Shown here: piece by piece, positions 16,908 to 24,637 of the stretch
Numbering within the stretch: position 1 is the first letter of the stretch
Layout of the letters: each line of letters begins with the position of its first letter
Assembly (NCBI GenBank): GCA_041615815.1
Contig: JBFJCP010000008.1
Span: 32,001-96,000 of the forward strand
Source of the DNA: Gemmatimonadales bacterium
GTDB lineage: Bacteria; Gemmatimonadota; Gemmatimonadetes; Gemmatimonadales; GWC2-71-9
DNA length: 64,000 nucleotides
Direction: 5' to 3'
Translations under genes and position numbers: made by a program
Notes under the pieces: model-generated
The model's database searches: none
Seen by the model: only the letters and a program-made list of their open reading frames with translations
What the model was told of the DNA's origin: nothing

Positions 16908-18415
16908 TTCTCACGGTGGGGGACTGGGCGCTGCTCACACTCGCAGCGCTCCTCGCCGGCGGTCTCACCCTCTGGTCCATCCGACGGACACGCCGCGCGA
17001 TTCAGCGCTGGACGAATCGCGCCGTCGTACGGTCCGTGCACCGGTTTCGGGTCCACATCGATCGGTACAAGCTCGTCCGCAAGCAGGTCATTCGTGAAAC
17101 ATTGCTCCGGGATCCTCATGTCCTCGAGGCCGTCCGTGATCACACGCACCGGCATGGCGTGAGCGAGATGGACGGGCGCGTACTCGTCGAGCGATACATT
17201 GACGAGATCGTTCCTTACTTCAACATCCTCTCGTACTACAAGCTGGGGTACAACCTCGCCCGACTACTGATCAATCTCCTCTATCGAGTCACATCGGAAT
17301 ACCAGGATGTCGAGCGGCTCAACGCCATCCCGCGGACCGACGTGGTCGTCTATCTCATGAACCATCGGTCCAACGCGGATTACGTCGTCGTGGCGTATAC
17401 GTTGGCCCGGAGTGTGAGCATCAGCTACGCCGTGGGCGAGTGGGCGCGCGTATGGCCACTCGAGTACGTCTTCAAGACCTTCGGCGCCTACTTCATCCGC
17501 CGCGGGTTTCGCGATCCCCTCTATCACATGGTTCTCGAGCGATACGTGCAGCTCATCACGCGAAATGGCGTGACGCAGGGAATCTTCTTGGAGGGCGGTC
17601 TGACTCGTGATGGTCGCTTCCGGCCGGCCAAGATCGGTCTCCTCGATTACATCGCACGGACGCTCCACGACCCTGAGTTCCGACGGGATATCTGGCTCGT
17701 CCCGGTCGCGATCAACTACGACCGCGTGCTCGAAGACCGATCGCTCATTCGCGAGCTCGTGGACGAGCACGATCGTCCCAGTCGGCTGCGGCAATTCCTC
17801 TCTGTGATTCACTACGTTTCGGTCAATCTGCTCCGGTTGGTCACCGGAAACCTCAAACGTTATGGGCGCGTCGCCGTGAACTTCGGCACGCCACTCTCGC
17901 TTCGTACCTGGCTCGCCGAGGATCTGGATGCGTTGCGACGACCCAAAGAGGAGCGCCTTGCGACGCTTCAGACGCTGGCCGACGAGATGATGCTCCGGAT
18001 CGCAACCATCATCCCGGTCACGTCGGTGCCGTTAACCGCAGCTGCGCTGCTCTCCTTCGGAGAAAGTGTCGTGGATCGTGCACGGCTCCTGGAACGGCTG
18101 GAGCAGTACCGCGATCATTTGCACCGGCAAGGCGCGAAGCTGGTACGCCCCGAGCGCGATGCAGCGGCGATACTGGCACGAGCCTCCCGCACGCTCACCA
18201 TGCGCCGTCTGACCGTTCATGAAGGCAACCGGTACGTCGTGCTTCCGTCACAGCGGCCACTCCTCGAGTATTATGCCAACTCCATTCGACATTTGCTCCC
18301 CGCCGACAGGGGCGGGGAACCGATCATGCATCCGGCCAAGGAGCCGGACCGTTCCCTACCCAGGCTCCGCGTCTGGACCCCCGCCCCCAAGCGCGGTCCG
18401 AACAACGCGCGTTGA
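16904..18415 (+). CDS. PlsB-like glycerol-3-phosphate acyltransferase (start CTG 16904 or GTG 16916)
   Basis: NHRSNAD (HX4D), GAYFIRR, FLEGGLTRDG, PVAINYDRVLE. Confidence 0.82.
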   Translation: MILTVGDWALLTLAALLAGGLTLWSIRRTRRAIQRWTNRAVVRSVHRFRVHIDRYKLVRKQVIRETLLRDPHVLEAVRDHTHRHGVSEMDGRVLVERYIDEIVPYFNILSYYKLGYNLARLLINLLYRVTSEYQDVERLNAIPRTDVVVYLMNHRSNADYVVVAYTLARSVSISYAVGEWARVWPLEYVFKTFGAYFIRRGFRDPLYHMVLERYVQLITRNGVTQGIFLEGGLTRDGRFRPAKIGLLDYIARTLHDPEFRRDIWLVPVAINYDRVLEDRSLIRELVDEHDRPSRLRQFLSVIHYVSVNLLRLVTGNLKRYGRVAVNFGTPLSLRTWLAEDLDALRRPKEERLATLQTLADEMMLRIATIIPVTSVPLTAAALLSFGESVVDRARLLERLEQYRDHLHRQGAKLVRPERDAAAILARASRTLTMRRLTVHEGNRYVVLPSQRPLLEYYANSIRHLLPADRGGEPIMHPAKEPDRSLPRLRVWTPAPKRGPNNAR

Positions 18416-18459
18416 ACAACGGGCGAGGGAGCACCAACGTCCTTAGTTTACGGATCGCC

Positions 18460-19437
18460 ATGGCGCAACCGACCGATATCAAGACACTCCCCGTTGGCGC
18501 ACGCGTCGAGGACACGTTCCTGGTCGTCGATCTGCGGGACCGGACCATGGATACCGGAGACGTCTACACGATTCTGACCCTCGGCAACAGCACCGGAAGA
18601 ATTCCGACAGAGCCGTTTTGGCCCACTCGGCAAACAGAGATCGCCGGATTGCGAAAGGGCCACGTGGTTCAGGTCATCGGTGAGGTCGCGACGTTTCGAG
18701 ATCGCCGGCAGCTCAAGGTCGTGTCCCTGCGACCGCTCCCCACAGAGTCGGTCAATCTCATCACGCTGCTTCCGTCCATCGGGACCGTCGACCGTTACTG
18801 GGAGACCTTGGACCGATGGCGCAGGGAGATCCGCCGGTCCAGCATCCGGGCCGTTGTTGATCTGTTCTACGAAGACCATGAGTTCCGCGCCCGATACGAG
18901 CAGTGCCCCGCCGCCGTCTCAGGGCATCACGCCTCCATCGGCGGACTGCTCAAACACACCACGGAGGTGGCTGCGATCGCTCGCACCATCGCCCGCGCCT
19001 GCGGCGCCGATGAACAGCTCGTCCTCGCCGGCGTCTTGCTGCACGACATCGGCAAGATCGAGAGCTATACGTGGGACGGCATCTTCGACTTTACCGAGGC
19101 GGGTCGGCTGGTGGGACATGTAGTCCTCGGTGCGCTGCTACTCGAGCGCCGACTCGGCGAGCAGCACCCGCCCCTCTGTACCGACGACGAGCGCAAGCTG
19201 TTGCTGCACTTCGTGCTGTCCCATCACGGTAAGCTCGAATGGGGAAGCCCGATTCCGCCCATGACGCTCGAGGCGGAGGTCCTGCACTGGGCTGATAACG
19301 CGAGCGCCAAGACGGCGAGCGTGGCGGAGGCGCTGCAAGACGACGACAACTTCCCCGAGGGCCGTGTCTCGATGGCCATTCGGAGGCTGGATTGGCGACG
19401 TCTGTTTCGCAACGGCGTGCTCGACGCCCCCGATTAG
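18460..19437 (+). CDS. OB-fold/HD-domain 3'-5' exoribonuclease, YhaM-like
   Basis: PAA...HHA.IGGLLKHT.EV, LLHDIGK, GHVVLG, SHHGKLEWGSP, HWADN. Confidence 0.88.
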   Translation: MAQPTDIKTLPVGARVEDTFLVVDLRDRTMDTGDVYTILTLGNSTGRIPTEPFWPTRQTEIAGLRKGHVVQVIGEVATFRDRRQLKVVSLRPLPTESVNLITLLPSIGTVDRYWETLDRWRREIRRSSIRAVVDLFYEDHEFRARYEQCPAAVSGHHASIGGLLKHTTEVAAIARTIARACGADEQLVLAGVLLHDIGKIESYTWDGIFDFTEAGRLVGHVVLGALLLERRLGEQHPPLCTDDERKLLLHFVLSHHGKLEWGSPIPPMTLEAEVLHWADNASAKTASVAEALQDDDNFPEGRVSMAIRRLDWRRLFRNGVLDAPD

Positions 19438-19634
19438 TCGAGACGGCCGAGCGCACGTTCCGCTCGGTCCAGCACCCGCGCCAACATGTCTACCAGTGCC
19501 CGGTGCCGGGACGTACCGGGCACGGCGAACATGCACAGGAGACAGCGGGCACCGGCAAGGGCGAGTTCGAGCTCCCGGCGCGTGGCCTCCCGCCTGGCAG
19601 CAGAACCGGTAGGCATGCGTAACCAGGGCGTCAT
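19434..19634 (-). CDS. Possible small hypothetical protein (66 aa)
   Basis: Helical ORF with CLLC filling the gap between the YhaM-like gene and archease. Confidence 0.4.
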   Translation of the reverse strand: MTPWLRMPTGSAARREATRRELELALAGARCLLCMFAVPGTSRHRALVDMLARVLDRAERALGRLD

Positions 19635-19697
19635 GCTGCCACGGTAACCACCATCGGTCAGAACGCCCGGATCCTCCGGGCGCCCGAGGGAGCAAAA

Positions 19698-20111
19698 GTG
19701 TCGTACCGTCATCTCCCGCACACCGCAGACATCAAGATCGAGATCACGGCACCGAGCTTGGAACAGGTATTCCAGGACGCGACCGCGTTGTTGAGAGAGT
19801 TGACGGTGGGAAGTACCGGGGTGGAAGTCCGAGAACGGCGCGATGTCACCGTTCGGGGGGACACACCCGCAGAGCAATTGCTTCAGTTCTTGAAGGAGGG
19901 ACTCTACCTCTTCGCTGTCGACGGCTTCGTCCCGGCCGGATGGGTCAGCGATTCGATCACACCCACCGAAATACAGGGCGCTTTCGAGGGTGAATCGTTT
20001 GACCCGAATCGCCACGAAACGCAGCCCGAGGTCAAAGCCGTCACCCGCCACGACCTTGCACTCGATCGGACGCCGGACGGCTGGCTCGGTACCATCGTGT
20101 TCGATCTCTGA
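19698..20111 (+). CDS. Archease (RtcB activator)
   Basis: YRHLPHTADI...EVKAVTRH...FDL. Confidence 0.93.
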   Translation: MSYRHLPHTADIKIEITAPSLEQVFQDATALLRELTVGSTGVEVRERRDVTVRGDTPAEQLLQFLKEGLYLFAVDGFVPAGWVSDSITPTEIQGAFEGESFDPNRHETQPEVKAVTRHDLALDRTPDGWLGTIVFDL

Positions 20112-20172
20112 ATCCTTCTCGAGAGCGCCGACGAGTCCTCCAACGCTCGTGCAGCGACGTTAACTTTCATCC

Positions 20173-21618
20173 ATGAAGCTCAATGACGTCCGCGTCGAGC
20201 AAATCGATGAGTTCCGGTGGCGTGTACCGCAACACGGCGGCATGCGTACCTACGGCCTCATCTTCGCCGATGCCGCATTGATGCAAGACCTCGCGGGCGA
20301 TCAGTGCGTCCAACAAGTCATCAACGTTGCCCACCTTCCAGGCATCGTCGGGCCCTCGATCGCGATGCCGGATATCCATTGGGGATATGGTTTTCCCATT
20401 GGTGGCGTGGCCGCATTTGACGAGAAAGAAGGAGTCATTTCGCCCGGCGGTGTGGGATACGACATCAACTGTGGGGTGCGCCTGCTGCGTTCTCCCCTCT
20501 CCATGCACGATGTTCGTCCCCACCTCCGCAAGCTGGTGGACGAGCTGTACGAGGGAATTCCCTCCGGCGTGGGGTCATCTCGCGCGGACGTCCGGCTCAC
20601 CGATTCCGAGCTCGGCCACGTGCTCAGGCGGGGAGCGCGGTGGGCCGTGGAAGAAGGATTCGGCGTGCCGCGTGACCTCGAGTGTATGGAAGGCGGCGGC
20701 GCGTTGGACGGCAACCCGGACACCGTGAGCGCCCGAGCGAAGAAACGCGGCAAGAACCAGCTCGGCACGGTGGGTAGTGGTAACCACTTCGTGGAGGTCG
20801 GTTACGTCTCCGCCATCTATGACGATGTCGCCGCCACCCGGCTCGGCCTGTCCCTCAACACCGTCACGTTCTTCATTCACTCCGGCTCCCGCGGTCTCGG
20901 ATACCAGGTCTGCGACGACTACCTCGATCTCATGGTGCAAGCCTCACGCAAGTACGGTATCGAGCTCCCGGACAAACAACTCTGTTGCGCACCGCTCACG
21001 AGTCCCGAAGCCCGCGACTATCTCGGGGCCATGAATGCGGCAGCGAATTACGCCTTCGCCAACCGCCAACTCATGAGTCACTATGTCCGCCGGGCAGTCA
21101 CCGACGTGTTTTCCGGCGACGCCGCGGACCAGGTGGACCTCGTGTATGATGTGGCTCACAACATCGCCAAGTTCGAGACACACGAGGTGGCAGGACAGGG
21201 CCGCCGCCTCTGCGTGCACCGCAAGGGGGCCACCCGTGCCTTCCCACCTCGGCACCCGGAACTCGCCGCCCGATTCCAAGACATTGGACAGCCGGTGTTC
21301 ATCCCCGGCGACATGGGCCGGTACTCCTATGTGCTGGTTGGCACTCCCGGTGCCTACGACGAGACGTTTGGTTCGACGTGTCACGGCGCTGGGAGACGCA
21401 TGAGCCGTACACAAGCCAAGAAGGAGGCCCGTCCCCGCAACGTGCCGAAAGAACTCGCGGCCCGCGGAATCCTGATCCGAGCCGCCAGTCGACGCACGGT
21501 GGACGAAGAGATCCCCGAGGCCTACAAAGATGTTCGGCAGGTAGTGGACGTCGTGGACGGAGCGGGAATTGGTAAGAAGGTGGCGCAACTCAAACCGATG
21601 GGAGTGGTGAAAGGGTAG
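20173..21618 (+). CDS. rtcB: RtcB RNA ligase
   Basis: MPDIHWGYGFPIGGV, GYDINCG, GSGNHF, HSGSRG, HNIAK, HRKGAT, HGAGR. Confidence 0.97.
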   Translation: MKLNDVRVEQIDEFRWRVPQHGGMRTYGLIFADAALMQDLAGDQCVQQVINVAHLPGIVGPSIAMPDIHWGYGFPIGGVAAFDEKEGVISPGGVGYDINCGVRLLRSPLSMHDVRPHLRKLVDELYEGIPSGVGSSRADVRLTDSELGHVLRRGARWAVEEGFGVPRDLECMEGGGALDGNPDTVSARAKKRGKNQLGTVGSGNHFVEVGYVSAIYDDVAATRLGLSLNTVTFFIHSGSRGLGYQVCDDYLDLMVQASRKYGIELPDKQLCCAPLTSPEARDYLGAMNAAANYAFANRQLMSHYVRRAVTDVFSGDAADQVDLVYDVAHNIAKFETHEVAGQGRRLCVHRKGATRAFPPRHPELAARFQDIGQPVFIPGDMGRYSYVLVGTPGAYDETFGSTCHGAGRRMSRTQAKKEARPRNVPKELAARGILIRAASRRTVDEEIPEAYKDVRQVVDVVDGAGIGKKVAQLKPMGVVKG

Positions 21619-21699
21619 AAGCTGGGAAAGCGAGGAGGCTGGACGGAACTGGCGGCATCACCTTCACACCGTCCGTCCTACGATCGAGTACCATAAATG

Positions 21700-22120
21700 C
21701 ACAGACGGCCGGGCATCCAAACGGATCCCGGCCGTCTATCGCACTGGTTACCCGGAGCCAGGGGATTAACTCCCTCTGTTCTTCTTCCCGGTGCCGCCGC
21801 GGCTGTTTGCACCTTGCGGATAAGCATTCCGGGAGCTCCGGCTTCCATCCACCTGCGGCCTGGCCTGGCCGCGGGCTTCGCCAGTGCGGGCGCTGCGAGT
21901 CGGATCGGGTCGCGGACCGACCTCTCGCACTGCACACCGAGGCGCCGCGTCGGTGCGGGCGAGGCGCGCGACTGGCCTCGCCGACCCAAGCCAAGGTGAC
22001 CACCTGGATCATCGAACGCCTGAGCTCTTGAGTTCTCGGCGTTCTCCCCAGAATTCCCGCTTGGGTCCGCCACGCTGGGCGTGGCCAAGACTCGAAAGTC
22101 CCGACCCGTCCCCGTGTGGC
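21700..22120 (-). ncRNA. Candidate large structured non-coding RNA (~420 nt), family not recognised
   Basis: At least 12 nested complementary helices with UUCG and GCAA tetraloops; upstream promoter; terminal hairpin; no credible ORF. Confidence 0.6.
21703..21737. terminator. Strong hairpin between rtcB and the convergent ncRNA candidate
   Basis: AGACGGCCGGG...CCCGGCCGTCT 11-bp perfect stem; weak U tract on the minus strand. Confidence 0.6.
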
Positions 22121-22126
22121 GAGATC

Positions 22127-22154
22127 AATATAGGGGGTCCCTAAAACCGCGCAA
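22127..22154 (-). promoter_or_regulatory. Sigma70-type promoter for the ncRNA candidate
   Basis: TTGCGC-16 nt-TATATT on the minus strand. Confidence 0.5.
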
Positions 22155-22197
22155 GCGCCGATATTTCTTCGGCTTACGAGCTTTCGTGTGGGCCTGC

Positions 22198-22291
22198 TGT
22201 GGAAACGTAATATCCGACGAAACGGCTACTTGCCCGACTTATCCACGCGGTGTGGACGTGTGCAAAACCGGATTCCCCACACTCATCCACA
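22198..22291. promoter_or_regulatory. DnaA-box cluster
   Basis: TGTGGAAAC, TTATCCACG, TGTGCAAAA, TTCCCCACA, TCATCCACA (0-2 mismatches to TTWTNCACA) within 94 bp. Confidence 0.6.
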
Positions 22292-22293
22292 TC

Positions 22294-22914
22294 TCATTCC
22301 CGAGTCCCCACTTCCTCGTATACGTAGGCATCGCCGGTCACGGAGGGGGCGAACAACAGACCGCCACCACTAGTTGCGAACCAACCGCCCAGGAGGACGT
22401 GGGACACCTCGGGCGCCGGTGGCTGAAAAAGTGCCGCGAGCCAGCGCCGCACGTGCATGAGTTCCGGGGCGCGCCGCGACAACAGTGAGAGGACACTCCC
22501 AACGCCTTGCGTCGCACGGAGAAAATGTGCGATCGCGTGGACGCGCTGCGCGAACTCATAGGCCCTCACGCCGGGTTCGTCGTAGAGCAGCGTACCCTCG
22601 TACGGGTCCGCGGGCGGTGCGTCCACCCGGGGACCGAGATAGACGTAGACCCGACGTCCCTGGCTGCGCCGTTCCACGACCGCGGCCGCCGTCTCGCCGG
22701 ACAGACGAGCGGCGTGCAGCTGGTCCGTGTCGTTCAAAATCCCCACGGTCACGGTCCATTCGAGCGCCGCCAGAGCGTTGTACAGCGGACACCCCAATTC
22801 CTCGTCGTAGGCGATGAGTCGAGGGGCCTCGCCTGCACGTTGGAAGAAATGGCCCCAAGCGTCGGCACGATCGGGGGCCGTGTGGGTGGATCGGGAGATA
22901 GCGGGTACCGTCAT
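22294..22914 (-). CDS. Hypothetical protein
   Basis: 206-aa ORF with protein-like composition; no recognised motif. Confidence 0.7.
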   Translation of the reverse strand: MTVPAISRSTHTAPDRADAWGHFFQRAGEAPRLIAYDEELGCPLYNALAALEWTVTVGILNDTDQLHAARLSGETAAAVVERRSQGRRVYVYLGPRVDAPPADPYEGTLLYDEPGVRAYEFAQRVHAIAHFLRATQGVGSVLSLLSRRAPELMHVRRWLAALFQPPAPEVSHVLLGGWFATSGGGLLFAPSVTGDAYVYEEVGTRE

Positions 22915-23031
22915 ACCTCGCTCAAGATAACCGGACCCGGGAGGGGCGCCTAGGTGCGGAGCCTCTCGACGGTGCTGGGGTACGGGCAGATGGGGCTTGC
23001 GGGCCTCGCAAGGTGTGCGTCCTATTTAGTC

Positions 23032-23047
23032 AGGCACGGCGGTTGCT
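23032..23047 (+). promoter_or_regulatory. Sigma54-type promoter candidate
   Basis: AGGCACGGCGGTTGCT, close to TGGCACG-N4-TTGCW. Confidence 0.45.
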
Positions 23048-23065
23048 AGACCAACATGTGAGCTC

Positions 23066-23653
23066 ATGCGAAACCTCTTCTGTCTGCTGGTCGTCCTCGC
23101 GCTGATCCCACCGCTGCCCGACCAGGGCGGCGATCGGCTACACCGCCGGTGGGTAGGGACGCATACCGGTGGTTCCCTCCATCTCGATTTTTATGGGGAC
23201 AGCCTACTCGTCGTCAACGATCAATACGCCCTCAATTATCGCGCCACCCGCGACTCGATCGTCGCCACCGGCGATACGACGCTGGCGGTATCGTACTGGT
23301 TTGCGCTGGACCGCCTCCTGCTCCGGACCACAGGGGATGAGGTCATCACGATGTCCGAGCAGAGTGCGCTCGCTCGACCCCTCCAAGGACGCTGGCGTGG
23401 CTCCCCCACCGCCTGGACGGATCGAGAGGTGGATCTCGTCATGAGTCGTGGCGGAGGCGCGCGGTGGCGAGCGGTTCCCCGCGGGGGTTGGACACAGGGA
23501 GAGTGGGATCGCGCCACTCGCGTCATCACGTTCACCTGGCTACCGGACTCCACCCAGTGGATCGGACAATACGACCCCGTCGGCAACGCGATCCTCTTCG
23601 AGGATGCGCCGCCCGAAAACGGGATCCTGGTCCTCCGGCGGGTGTTTCGCTGA
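23066..23653 (+). CDS. Secreted hypothetical protein (two small beta-rich repeats)
   Basis: Signal peptide; two L..RW.G units. Confidence 0.7.
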   Translation: MRNLFCLLVVLALIPPLPDQGGDRLHRRWVGTHTGGSLHLDFYGDSLLVVNDQYALNYRATRDSIVATGDTTLAVSYWFALDRLLLRTTGDEVITMSEQSALARPLQGRWRGSPTAWTDREVDLVMSRGGGARWRAVPRGGWTQGEWDRATRVITFTWLPDSTQWIGQYDPVGNAILFEDAPPENGILVLRRVFR

Positions 23654-23719
23654 GCATCCATCCCCTTCCTCCCAACCGTTGGCCATGTGAGAAGGCGCAC
23701 CCACGGCCGGGGGCCCGCT

Positions 23720-24637
23720 TCAGATCACGACGACCGGTGTCACGACCTCGCGCTCGCGCGCGAAGACCCGTTCAGCAGCATCGAGCGCCTCCTGGACCTC
23801 GGGGGTTTCCGCATCGGGGTATTTGACGCTGGGCTCGATCTGCCCGCTGAGACGCCGTACCATTACCAACGCCCGCGTGACCTCGCAACGCGCTGGGTCG
23901 GGATCCGTGAATCCCGAGGTCAACAGGTCGCGGAAGAAGGGGAGCGTCCTGACATCCTCCAGCACGTAGAGCGATTCCAGAATCCTCGGACTCAGGAACG
24001 CGCGCAGGTGCAGATCGCGGCGAACCTCGTCGAACAAGGCAACCAGATACAGGGCCGCGTCCTGCTCGGGATAAAAGCGAGCTGCCTCGGCCGCCGCGCC
24101 GACGAACGCGTGGTGGGCGTCCGGCGTGAGATACCGAACAAAGAGAGGCCACTCTCGCCGACGATGCCGCTCCGCCAGCGCCAAGAACGCAAAATATCGG
24201 CGGGGAATCGGCGCCGCCCCATCGGCCACGACGGTTCGGAGTCCGGCGGGACCGAACCGCTGGGCGACCAACGCCGCCGCGGTGGCGTGCTGGAGTCGTT
24301 CGAGCTCGGGCAGCCGAAAGGTTCGGACTCGGAGGGCCGCGGACTCCCCACCCGTGGCCAAGGGGGGCAGCTGCCGTAGGAGACCGAGCAGAAGGGAGTC
24401 CACTTCCTCCAATGCGAACTCCCACACGCGAACATCCCGACGTCGGGGCGCGGCGAGCGCCTCCCAGCCCAAGCGTGTGACGTCCAGGTCGTCCCACCGG
24501 GTCTCGAGCACGGAGGGGGTTTGCGCCTCGGAAAGTCGACGCAACGCCTCGGCAAATCGGAAGAGGGCGTCAGGCACCGAAGGCAATGTAGATCGCGGGC
24601 GAATGGGTGGCGAGCCTCCGGTGCATATTGCATTCAC
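23720..24637 (-). CDS. Hypothetical alpha-helical (HEAT-like) protein; start uncertain
   Basis: Long ORF of amphipathic helices. Confidence 0.65.
   Translation of the reverse strand: MNAICTGGSPPIRPRSTLPSVPDALFRFAEALRRLSEAQTPSVLETRWDDLDVTRLGWEALAAPRRRDVRVWEFALEEVDSLLLGLLRQLPPLATGGESAALRVRTFRLPELERLQHATAAALVAQRFGPAGLRTVVADGAAPIPRRYFAFLALAERHRRREWPLFVRYLTPDAHHAFVGAAAEAARFYPEQDAALYLVALFDEVRRDLHLRAFLSPRILESLYVLEDVRTLPFFRDLLTSGFTDPDPARCEVTRALVMVRRLSGQIEPSVKYPDAETPEVQEALDAAERVFAREREVVTPVVVI

Follow-up and report, generated by a model that had tools for sequence, protein, structure and literature searches.

In this study, we identified on the minus strand of the window (the whole stretch of 64,000 nt that was analysed) an element of about 420 nt, positions 22120 to 21700, which is almost certainly a real structured RNA gene and noncoding. 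Homologues occur in two Gemmatimonadales families, and their covariation supports the view that the RNA represents a new and apparently undescribed class; 'new' refers here to the RNA class, which in the genomes searched is confined to two families within a single order. The minus strand (455 nt) gave a folding energy of -246.9 kcal/mol (z = -6.67), which none of 100 shuffled sequences equalled, and the frequent G-U pairs on this strand in the RNAalifold model fit with minus being the RNA strand. An earlier note made from the letters of this DNA had proposed a large structured RNA that stands alone and possibly belongs to a new class; homologues, covariation, the blank Rfam result and contigs from RNA libraries all bear this out, and the strings quoted there are all present where the note placed them on the minus strand. 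A small protein gene within the RNA was considered and rejected, as no start or reading frame is conserved among 150 homologues: the one ATG that is common (21848) is lacking from 61 of them, and in the other 89 the frames of a downstream motif split 49/29/11. The two ORFs overlapping the RNA had no Pfam match.

The strand, limits, promoter and final 11-bp hairpin read in the earlier note are those of the homologues. In 144 of 150 full-length homologues, a spacer of 16 nt, variable in sequence, separates the -35 box from the -10 box, and the 3′ end is a hairpin followed by a T-rich tail in 136 of the 150. In the same set the T/A/T of the -10 box is conserved at 96/98/99%, while conservation of the -35 TTG is not independent, being demanded by the search pattern that collected these homologues. 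The start site of the RNA probably lies near 22120. A simple consensus scan of the window called neither promoter nor terminator of the RNA gene, because the -35 box matches at 3/6 positions and the T tail is short here. The element directly upstream of the -35 box reaches at least 15 bits in 146 of 167 distinct RNA copies, and in the host genome its matrix matches solely at two RNA copies. The features are collected in Table 1.

Table 1. Features of the RNA gene and its surroundings (window positions)
Feature	Position	Strand	Basis
HD-domain (YhaM-like) gene 18412-19437, archease 19698-20111, rtcB 20173-21618; convergent, context only	18412..21618	+	Pfam
Terminator-like 11-bp GC hairpin (21737-21703) and short T tail	21695..21737	-	sequence and homologues
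Domain F: multi-way junction, conserved A-rich linkers	21740..21888	-	outer stem 93% paired, 61 double changes; inner 98%
Pseudoknot 2, 3′ strand, 5 bp with loop D	21889..21893	-	99.4% paired; 97.9% in further set
Core helix E, 1x3 internal loop; loop 21914-21909 kisses loop C	21896..21927	-	covariation
Core hairpin D; loop 21946-21942 is pseudoknot 2 5′ strand	21933..21957	-	98.5% paired
Core hairpin C; loop 21972-21967 is pseudoknot 1 5′ strand	21958..21982	-	96.6% paired; 7/8 pairs double-changed
Domain B: stem closing long arm and small hairpin; dispensable	21984..22066	-	outer stem 93% paired, 35 double changes
Domain A: variable 5′ stem-loop, inner hairpin; dispensable	22069..22120	-	outer stem 89% paired, 38 double changes
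Sigma-70-type promoter: TTGCGC 22154-22149, 16 nt, TATATT 22132-22127	22127..22154	-	boxes conserved
Conserved element (TAAnCCGAAnAAA...GGCRC) directly upstream of -35 box	22155..22176	-	matrix
Five DnaA-box-like 9-mers, 0-2 mismatches to TTWTNCACA, upstream of promoter	22198..22291		consensus match
206-aa protein gene, most constant neighbour	22294..22914	-	gene calls

RNAalifold on 28 homologues predicted 99 pairs, 74 of them with a compensatory change. The domains follow one another in series, from A and B through the helices C, D and E (21982-21896) to F and the terminator-like hairpin. C, D and E form, together with two pseudoknots, a 96-nt core: pseudoknot 1 joins loop C with loop E over 6 bp, and pseudoknot 2 joins loop D with the tail behind E over 5 bp. 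Both pseudoknots were first spotted by eye and then scored on alignments. In 34 sequences the core was 97.2% paired, with 27 of its 37 pairs double-changed; 0 of 500 shuffles did as well, and slid partners paired at 32-42%. In 95 further distinct sequences, aligned with a model lacking the pseudoknots, the latter were 98% paired and showed 55 double-changed cells vs 5.7 in shuffles; most of these sequences were chosen by a pattern fixing loop C, which makes the set a freer test of pseudoknot 2 than of pseudoknot 1. The number of additional pair types in this set was no better than in shuffles (76/500). Pseudoknot 1 was paired at 97.1% in the 34 sequences and 98.0% in the 95; its first pair carried 19 double changes.

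Ninety non-redundant full-length copies (66% mean identity) contained 59 columns conserved at 97% or more. Their strongest covarying pairs fell in core and domain helices, the top pair of the RNA lying in hairpin D and a pseudoknot-2 pair ranking seventh; the pair 21944-21891 is C-G in 66 of the 90 and U-A in 24. The scan of these 90 sequences gave no additional inter-domain helix, and its remaining top pairs look like shared ancestry, in a comparison made with no tree control; nor did covariation give a stem closing the 5′ to the 3′ end. The arm of domain B, with internal loop GGAG/GAUC and loop CAAGGGC, was 100% paired with 27 double changes, and the linkers of domain F read GAAC, GGAUGGAAG, AGAAGAAC and GGGUA. 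A pairing between the B loop and F, seen by eye, was dropped, since the B loop persists in copies lacking F.

Scored on the 28 homologues, with five rows matching a wrong occurrence of a motif left out, several hairpins of the earlier note reappeared: GAACGCC/GGCGTTC was 96% paired, GCACCGA/TCGGTGT 98% and CCGGAGC/GCTCCGG 92%, while TCCCG/CGGGA (within TCCCGG/CCGGGA) and GCGAG/CTCGC were both at 88%, with 20 and 17 double changes, respectively. Other stems did not hold as drawn there, namely GGGTC/GACCC (81% paired), GCCAGT/ACTGGC (75%, 2 double changes), GCCACGC/GCGTGGC (59%) and CTTGG/CCAGG (50%). ATCCA/TGGAT was 88% paired but had 3 double changes, whereas a competing local helix was 100% paired with 27. 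The long-range stems of the long nested central domain that the note had drawn were 50-88% paired with 1-3 double changes; their weakness and the better local helix indicate that this domain is an artefact of single-sequence pairing, and the double-pseudoknot core replaces it.

Natural variants define which parts are dispensable. Of the 167 distinct copies with full flanks, 130 were full-length, seven were core-only genes (core preceded by the promoter at 30-39 nt, domain F missing), six had the 5′ part and no clear F (four clear cases, two borderline), three had a shortened 5′ part, and 21 lacked the usual upstream element, many of these being second copies with other promoters. Domain A is absent from the core-only variants and from many second copies, and domain F is gone in some lineages (L020, L030, L085-L093). 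The core was kept in every detected copy, although copies were located with core models, so that core-losing copies could escape. The loss of flanking domains with retention of the core indicates that the core is the conserved unit. Genomes carry one to three copies. The host genome (G000) has three, namely the one in the window, C46:9203-9700 and one on C2 near 201954-202235. The C46 copy (plus strand, L041) has the same promoter element and box cluster and adjoins genes for a 2-oxoacid:ferredoxin oxidoreductase and LigD; the C2 copy (plus strand, L054) lacks domain A. Counter to the reading favoured below, this C2 copy has a broken pseudoknot 1, and genus g8 an altered one. Two further types of second copy, each with its own upstream sequences, were seen (L227-L229, L232, L234, L235, L043, L045; and L223, L230, L231, L233), one type consisting of B, core and F without A and the other of a short B remnant, core and F. 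Second copies may be expressed under other conditions.

A search with the window sequence gave strong matches in 22 of the 24 host-family (f1) genomes and in all eight from the sister family (f3); two other f1 genomes and three of eight from another family (f2) gave matches of 30-47 nt with E > 0.001. When a central homologue was used as the query against 350 genomes of the phylum, matches were found in 134 of 144 f1 genomes, 4 of 4 f3 genomes and 1 of 202 others, the last being a 27-nt chance match that was discarded. A core covariance model recovered the RNA in nine of the ten missing f1 genomes, raising the count to 143 of 144, and gave none in 70 other genomes; a second covariance model found 8 of 8 f1 genomes, none of 40 from f2, and 1 of 33 others at E 0.04, which was rejected. 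Per genome, the covariance searches scored 52-104 candidates out of thousands, and very divergent forms may therefore be missed. As judged by these sequence searches, the RNA family is restricted, among the genomes searched, to two Gemmatimonadales families, with 0 of 202 others in the phylum. An exact pattern run against all GTDB genomes, the one search that extended to other phyla, gave at least 119 stretches; among the matches listed, 80 of 80 were titled Gemmatimonadota or a subgroup, and all 80 named carrier records were metagenome-assembled genomes. Viral contigs gave no match for two patterns, and phage records none. Several weak matches were set aside: one of 31 bits in G195 (a terminator together with the beginning of an ORF), matches of 26-28 nt in G198 and G062, a 25.7-bit match on C5 of the host genome in coding-looking sequence, and a 46-nt match to a Gemmatirosa plasmid (E 0.03). 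Three unpublished genomes (G016, G200, G083) are counted in the tallies and no conclusion rests on them; L007 (from G016) appears as a single row in each of alignments A1, A3 and A4, and L055 (from G200) as one in A5.

Rfam 15 at gathering score called only three tRNAs in the 64-kb window. Even at E ≤10, the best scores in four stretches (element and homologue) were 18-20 bits, far under the cut-offs, and no ribozyme family was among them; no credible match thus lies over the element, and its apparent novelty stands. The earlier note had also missed in it the hallmark motifs of tmRNA, RNase P and SRP RNA, and separate genes for all three indeed lie elsewhere in the host genome: RNase P RNA (RF00010, 286 bits) at C8:105464-105828, a full tmRNA at C1:50779-51136 (ARAGORN found none in the window) and SRP RNA (RF00169) at C3:132708-132805. 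The 6S RNA model (RF00013) detected nothing in the host genome or 40 relatives, and the same model found 6S in just 5 of 14 controls. The 6S RNA of the Gemmatimonadales is either divergent or missing (none in 41 genomes of the order). On C16 of the host genome, near 91500-91620 (L218), an RNase Y-like gene comes within about 110 nt after zapA, and the gap between the two contains no 6S. No description of our RNA was found in the literature, most subscription papers and large supplementary motif lists being outside the scope of that search; the string 'Gemmat' is absent from the main text of PMC8632094 and from the available parts of PMC11109978 and of two bioRxiv preprints (10.64898/2026.10.21.760802 and 10.64898/2026.09.22.753630).

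The 206-aa protein gene was near the RNA in about 100 of 131 distinct loci with gene calls (the count of 101 is slightly high, as some unrelated proteins were chained into the cluster); most flanks measured 1.5 kb, which makes all neighbour counts lower bounds. It lies upstream of the RNA in f1 and downstream and convergent in f3, thus remaining adjacent despite rearrangement between the families. Its profile matched in 134 of 144 f1 genomes, 4 of 4 f3 genomes and 0 of 202 others, as a single copy in each; 134 f1 genomes had both RNA and protein, nine the RNA only, one neither, and none the protein only. In genus g19 the profile matched none of four genomes, and a full-length RNA is present in three of these. 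The only f1 genome that lacks both (G024, 97% complete) also misses the HD orthologue, and the whole locus may have been lost or left unassembled. The protein family is highly conserved, single-copy and confined to the two families that carry the RNA. The protein is acidic (pI 5.1-6.3), and its model, predicted with confidence (pLDDT 85.7), is of a soluble-looking alpha/beta protein. It had no Pfam match, no NCBIfam match at cut-off and no usable Atlas match, and all 135 profile matches were without annotation. A structure search gave a best Z of 6.0, with no clear fold match and no RNA-binding fold, which is not proof of a new fold; a hit in the PDB to a designed repeat protein (E 0.00085) was rejected, as no stretch passed. 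The protein is the first candidate for a partner of the RNA, a role that we nevertheless regard as doubtful. Their shared distribution and adjacency may reflect plain vertical inheritance.

On the other side of the RNA, the HD nuclease, archease and RtcB genes stand in a row as an RNA end-processing set, and the window RtcB has a cysteine, not selenocysteine, in its DINCG motif. The label YhaM-like is our own, from the OB and HD domain pair seen in two homologues. The link to rtcB suggested in the earlier note did not hold up, since rtcB was a neighbour in just 9 of 131 loci; the HD gene was one in 33. The same note had stated that no same-strand gene follows. This is true of the window and not of the loci at large, where the nearest downstream gene was convergent in 69 of 131 and on the same strand in 53.

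Parts of the stretch were present in 12 runs recorded as RNA and in one doubtful run (five studies). Contigs from 4 of the 13 runs (three studies) were aligned at 80% likeness over 18400-24400. Their summed depth in the core bin (21817-22017) was 9238, 177532, 327 and 7334, vs at most 10.5 outside the three bins of the RNA; the runs were picked because they contain this stretch, and such assembled contigs of mixed organisms give no strand, ends or true level. We infer that the RNA is highly abundant. Two contigs were near-identical to the window (159 nt with 1 difference and 144 nt with 0), indicating that very close relatives were present in these RNA libraries. Three contigs from three studies end at 21744-21749, before the terminator hairpin, which hints weakly that the RNA may be trimmed at the foot of domain F. 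The shallow contig coverage of domains A and B was not taken as a sign of processing, because these domains diverge and loose contig ends run on.

Given its own promoter and terminator and the free orientation of the downstream gene, the RNA is likely to act in trans. The reading that we favour, tentatively and at somewhat less than an even chance, is by analogy with the raiA motif and OLE: the RNA would be an independently transcribed, abundant, trans-acting noncoding RNA whose core, clamped into a compact shape by the 6-bp loop-loop kiss and the 5-bp loop-tail pseudoknot, might offer a rigid, shape-specific surface for a protein, which it would scaffold or sequester as part of a ribonucleoprotein, with A, B and F as optional add-ons, and whose synthesis could be coupled to growth or replication state via the DnaA-box-like sites. 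The acidic character of the 206-aa protein, the lack of an RNA-binding fold match for it and the failure to find it in genus g19 argue against protein binding. Like our RNA, the raiA motif RNA (ModT, RF03072) is stand-alone and abundant, with a two-pseudoknot core, variable peripheral stems and natural minimal forms, and the numbers of highly conserved positions are similar in kind (51 in raiA, 59 here). In the available parts of PMC12968392 and PMC10861870, the raiA core is described with these two pseudoknots and optional arms, P1 pairing the 5′ and 3′ ends, P4 closing the core, and PK1 (6 bp) joining the P3b hairpin loop, preceded by A, to a single-stranded linker. Our RNA, in contrast, has neither P1 nor P4 and sets separate domains in a row; its pseudoknot 1 is loop-loop, not loop-linker, and its pseudoknot 2 is a 5-bp loop-tail pairing where raiA has 2-4 pairs. 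It is also larger (about 420 vs about 200 nt), occurs in one to three copies in Gemmatimonadales, not as a single copy in Bacillota/Actinomycetota, and lacks the raiA/comFC context at its loci. OLE is a large, ornate orphan RNA that works in a ribonucleoprotein (PMC10861870, in part). Our RNA has beside it a lineage-specific gene as candidate partner, for which both adjacency and shared distribution were seen, apart from the missing protein in g19. The size and fold of OLE are different and no Rfam match links the two RNAs. In a comparable arrangement, ole adjoins oapA, and OapA is a membrane protein, unlike the soluble-looking acidic neighbour predicted here.

The main rival, which we consider unlikely, is that the core is a ribozyme, self-cleaving or acting on other RNA, with accessory flanking domains and ends that the HD nuclease, archease and RtcB would process. 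With its compact double pseudoknot, its length of about 96 nt and unpaired residues that never vary, the core has a size and build typical of small ribozymes, and the end-processing genes do flank some loci. Moreover, most solved large bacterial noncoding RNAs are ribozymes or parts of core machines, as argued in the available text of PMC10861870. However, no Rfam ribozyme appeared even at E 10, core-only genes start the core a few bases after the -10 box, leaving hardly anything to cleave off, 122 of 131 loci lack rtcB, and in f2 the HD gene is present without the RNA. An RNA polymerase decoy taking the place of 6S RNA, the part played by Ms1 in mycobacteria, would suit an abundant, stand-alone RNA in a lineage where 6S was undetected and has no room beside zapA. 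This is improbable, because the fold is branched and pseudoknotted and has no open-promoter mimic (a rod with a central bubble); the 6S blank itself says little, since the model fails equally in f2 (0 of 8), where this RNA was not found, and in most controls.

A comparably small chance goes to an RNA-only oligomer or cage in which the kissing loop joins separate molecules. The covarying kisses of GOLLD, ROOL and OLE proved to be intermolecular bridges, with A-minor contacts, in the part of PMC12286853 available, and our RNA shares with GOLLD and ROOL, as described there, a multi-domain build, kissing loops and A-rich linkers. Both of its kissing loops, however, belong to neighbouring helices of one 96-nt unit, which suits an intramolecular fold; no further inter-domain helix emerged from 90 sequences, and core-only genes lack the A-rich domain. 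The RNA is also smaller than GOLLD and ROOL and has a fixed chromosomal locus, no tRNA or prophage context being seen, and no Rfam match to them. Descent from a remote, rearranged raiA motif is very unlikely, despite the shared two-pseudoknot core, optional arms and minimal forms, and despite a first pseudoknot of 6 bp from a hairpin loop preceded by A in both RNAs, as far as the available parts of the raiA papers go. The RF03072 model gave no match at E 10 in the host genome (0 of 14 control genomes passed the cut-off), the pseudoknot wiring is different, P1 and P4 are lacking, and none of 116 neighbouring proteins scanned was raiA or comFC. The letters at 21976-21968 resemble what we take to be the raiA loop. 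A cis-acting leader or riboswitch whose terminator governs the next gene has the least in its favour and is highly improbable: the core is of aptamer size, pseudoknotted and followed by a terminator, and the same-strand arrangement does exist, but the next gene is convergent in the window, in the core-only genes examined and in 69 loci altogether, and the same-strand downstream genes are unrelated among themselves.

Few bacterial RNAs are both large and highly conserved, and the present one contributes a new fold whose 96-nt core is sharply delimited. Its natural deletion variants map the dispensable parts, the core-only genes offer a ready-made minimal version, and with it come a candidate partner, a putative regulator and paralogues that have other promoters. 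That it is, as a whole, a new RNA machine, with a catalytic or scaffolding double-pseudoknot core and its own protein from outside the known families, ranking with the most abundant RNAs of its lineage and switched by DnaA, seems rather unlikely; if true, an RNA-based activity would be tied to chromosome replication via DnaA in a major soil and sediment lineage.

The possible regulator is suggested by the boxes upstream of the promoter, at which DnaA may bind, as judged by the E. coli-type consensus. Across 54 homologous upstream regions, the hexamer TCCACA/TGTGGA reaches 3.4 copies per 170 nt vs 0.07 genome-wide, and boxes with at most one mismatch number 1.24 vs 0.125 in shuffles. Clusters of the hexamer also lie behind dnaA and before a sigma-factor gene (gene names read from sequence). 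The gap behind dnaA (G000:C8:102166-102420) contains TGTGGA boxes and an AT-rich tract and is followed by a DnaN-like start; it is likely oriC, 47 kb from the RNA gene. That the boxes upstream of the RNA are themselves oriC was set aside, as dnaA is 47 kb off with its own box cluster and AT-rich tract. The densest hexamer cluster of the genome, six in 250 nt, is at G000:C16:46071-46230, where it is followed by a sequence resembling the upstream promoter element of the RNA, with no obvious long ORF start; it possibly marks another regulated RNA or gene.
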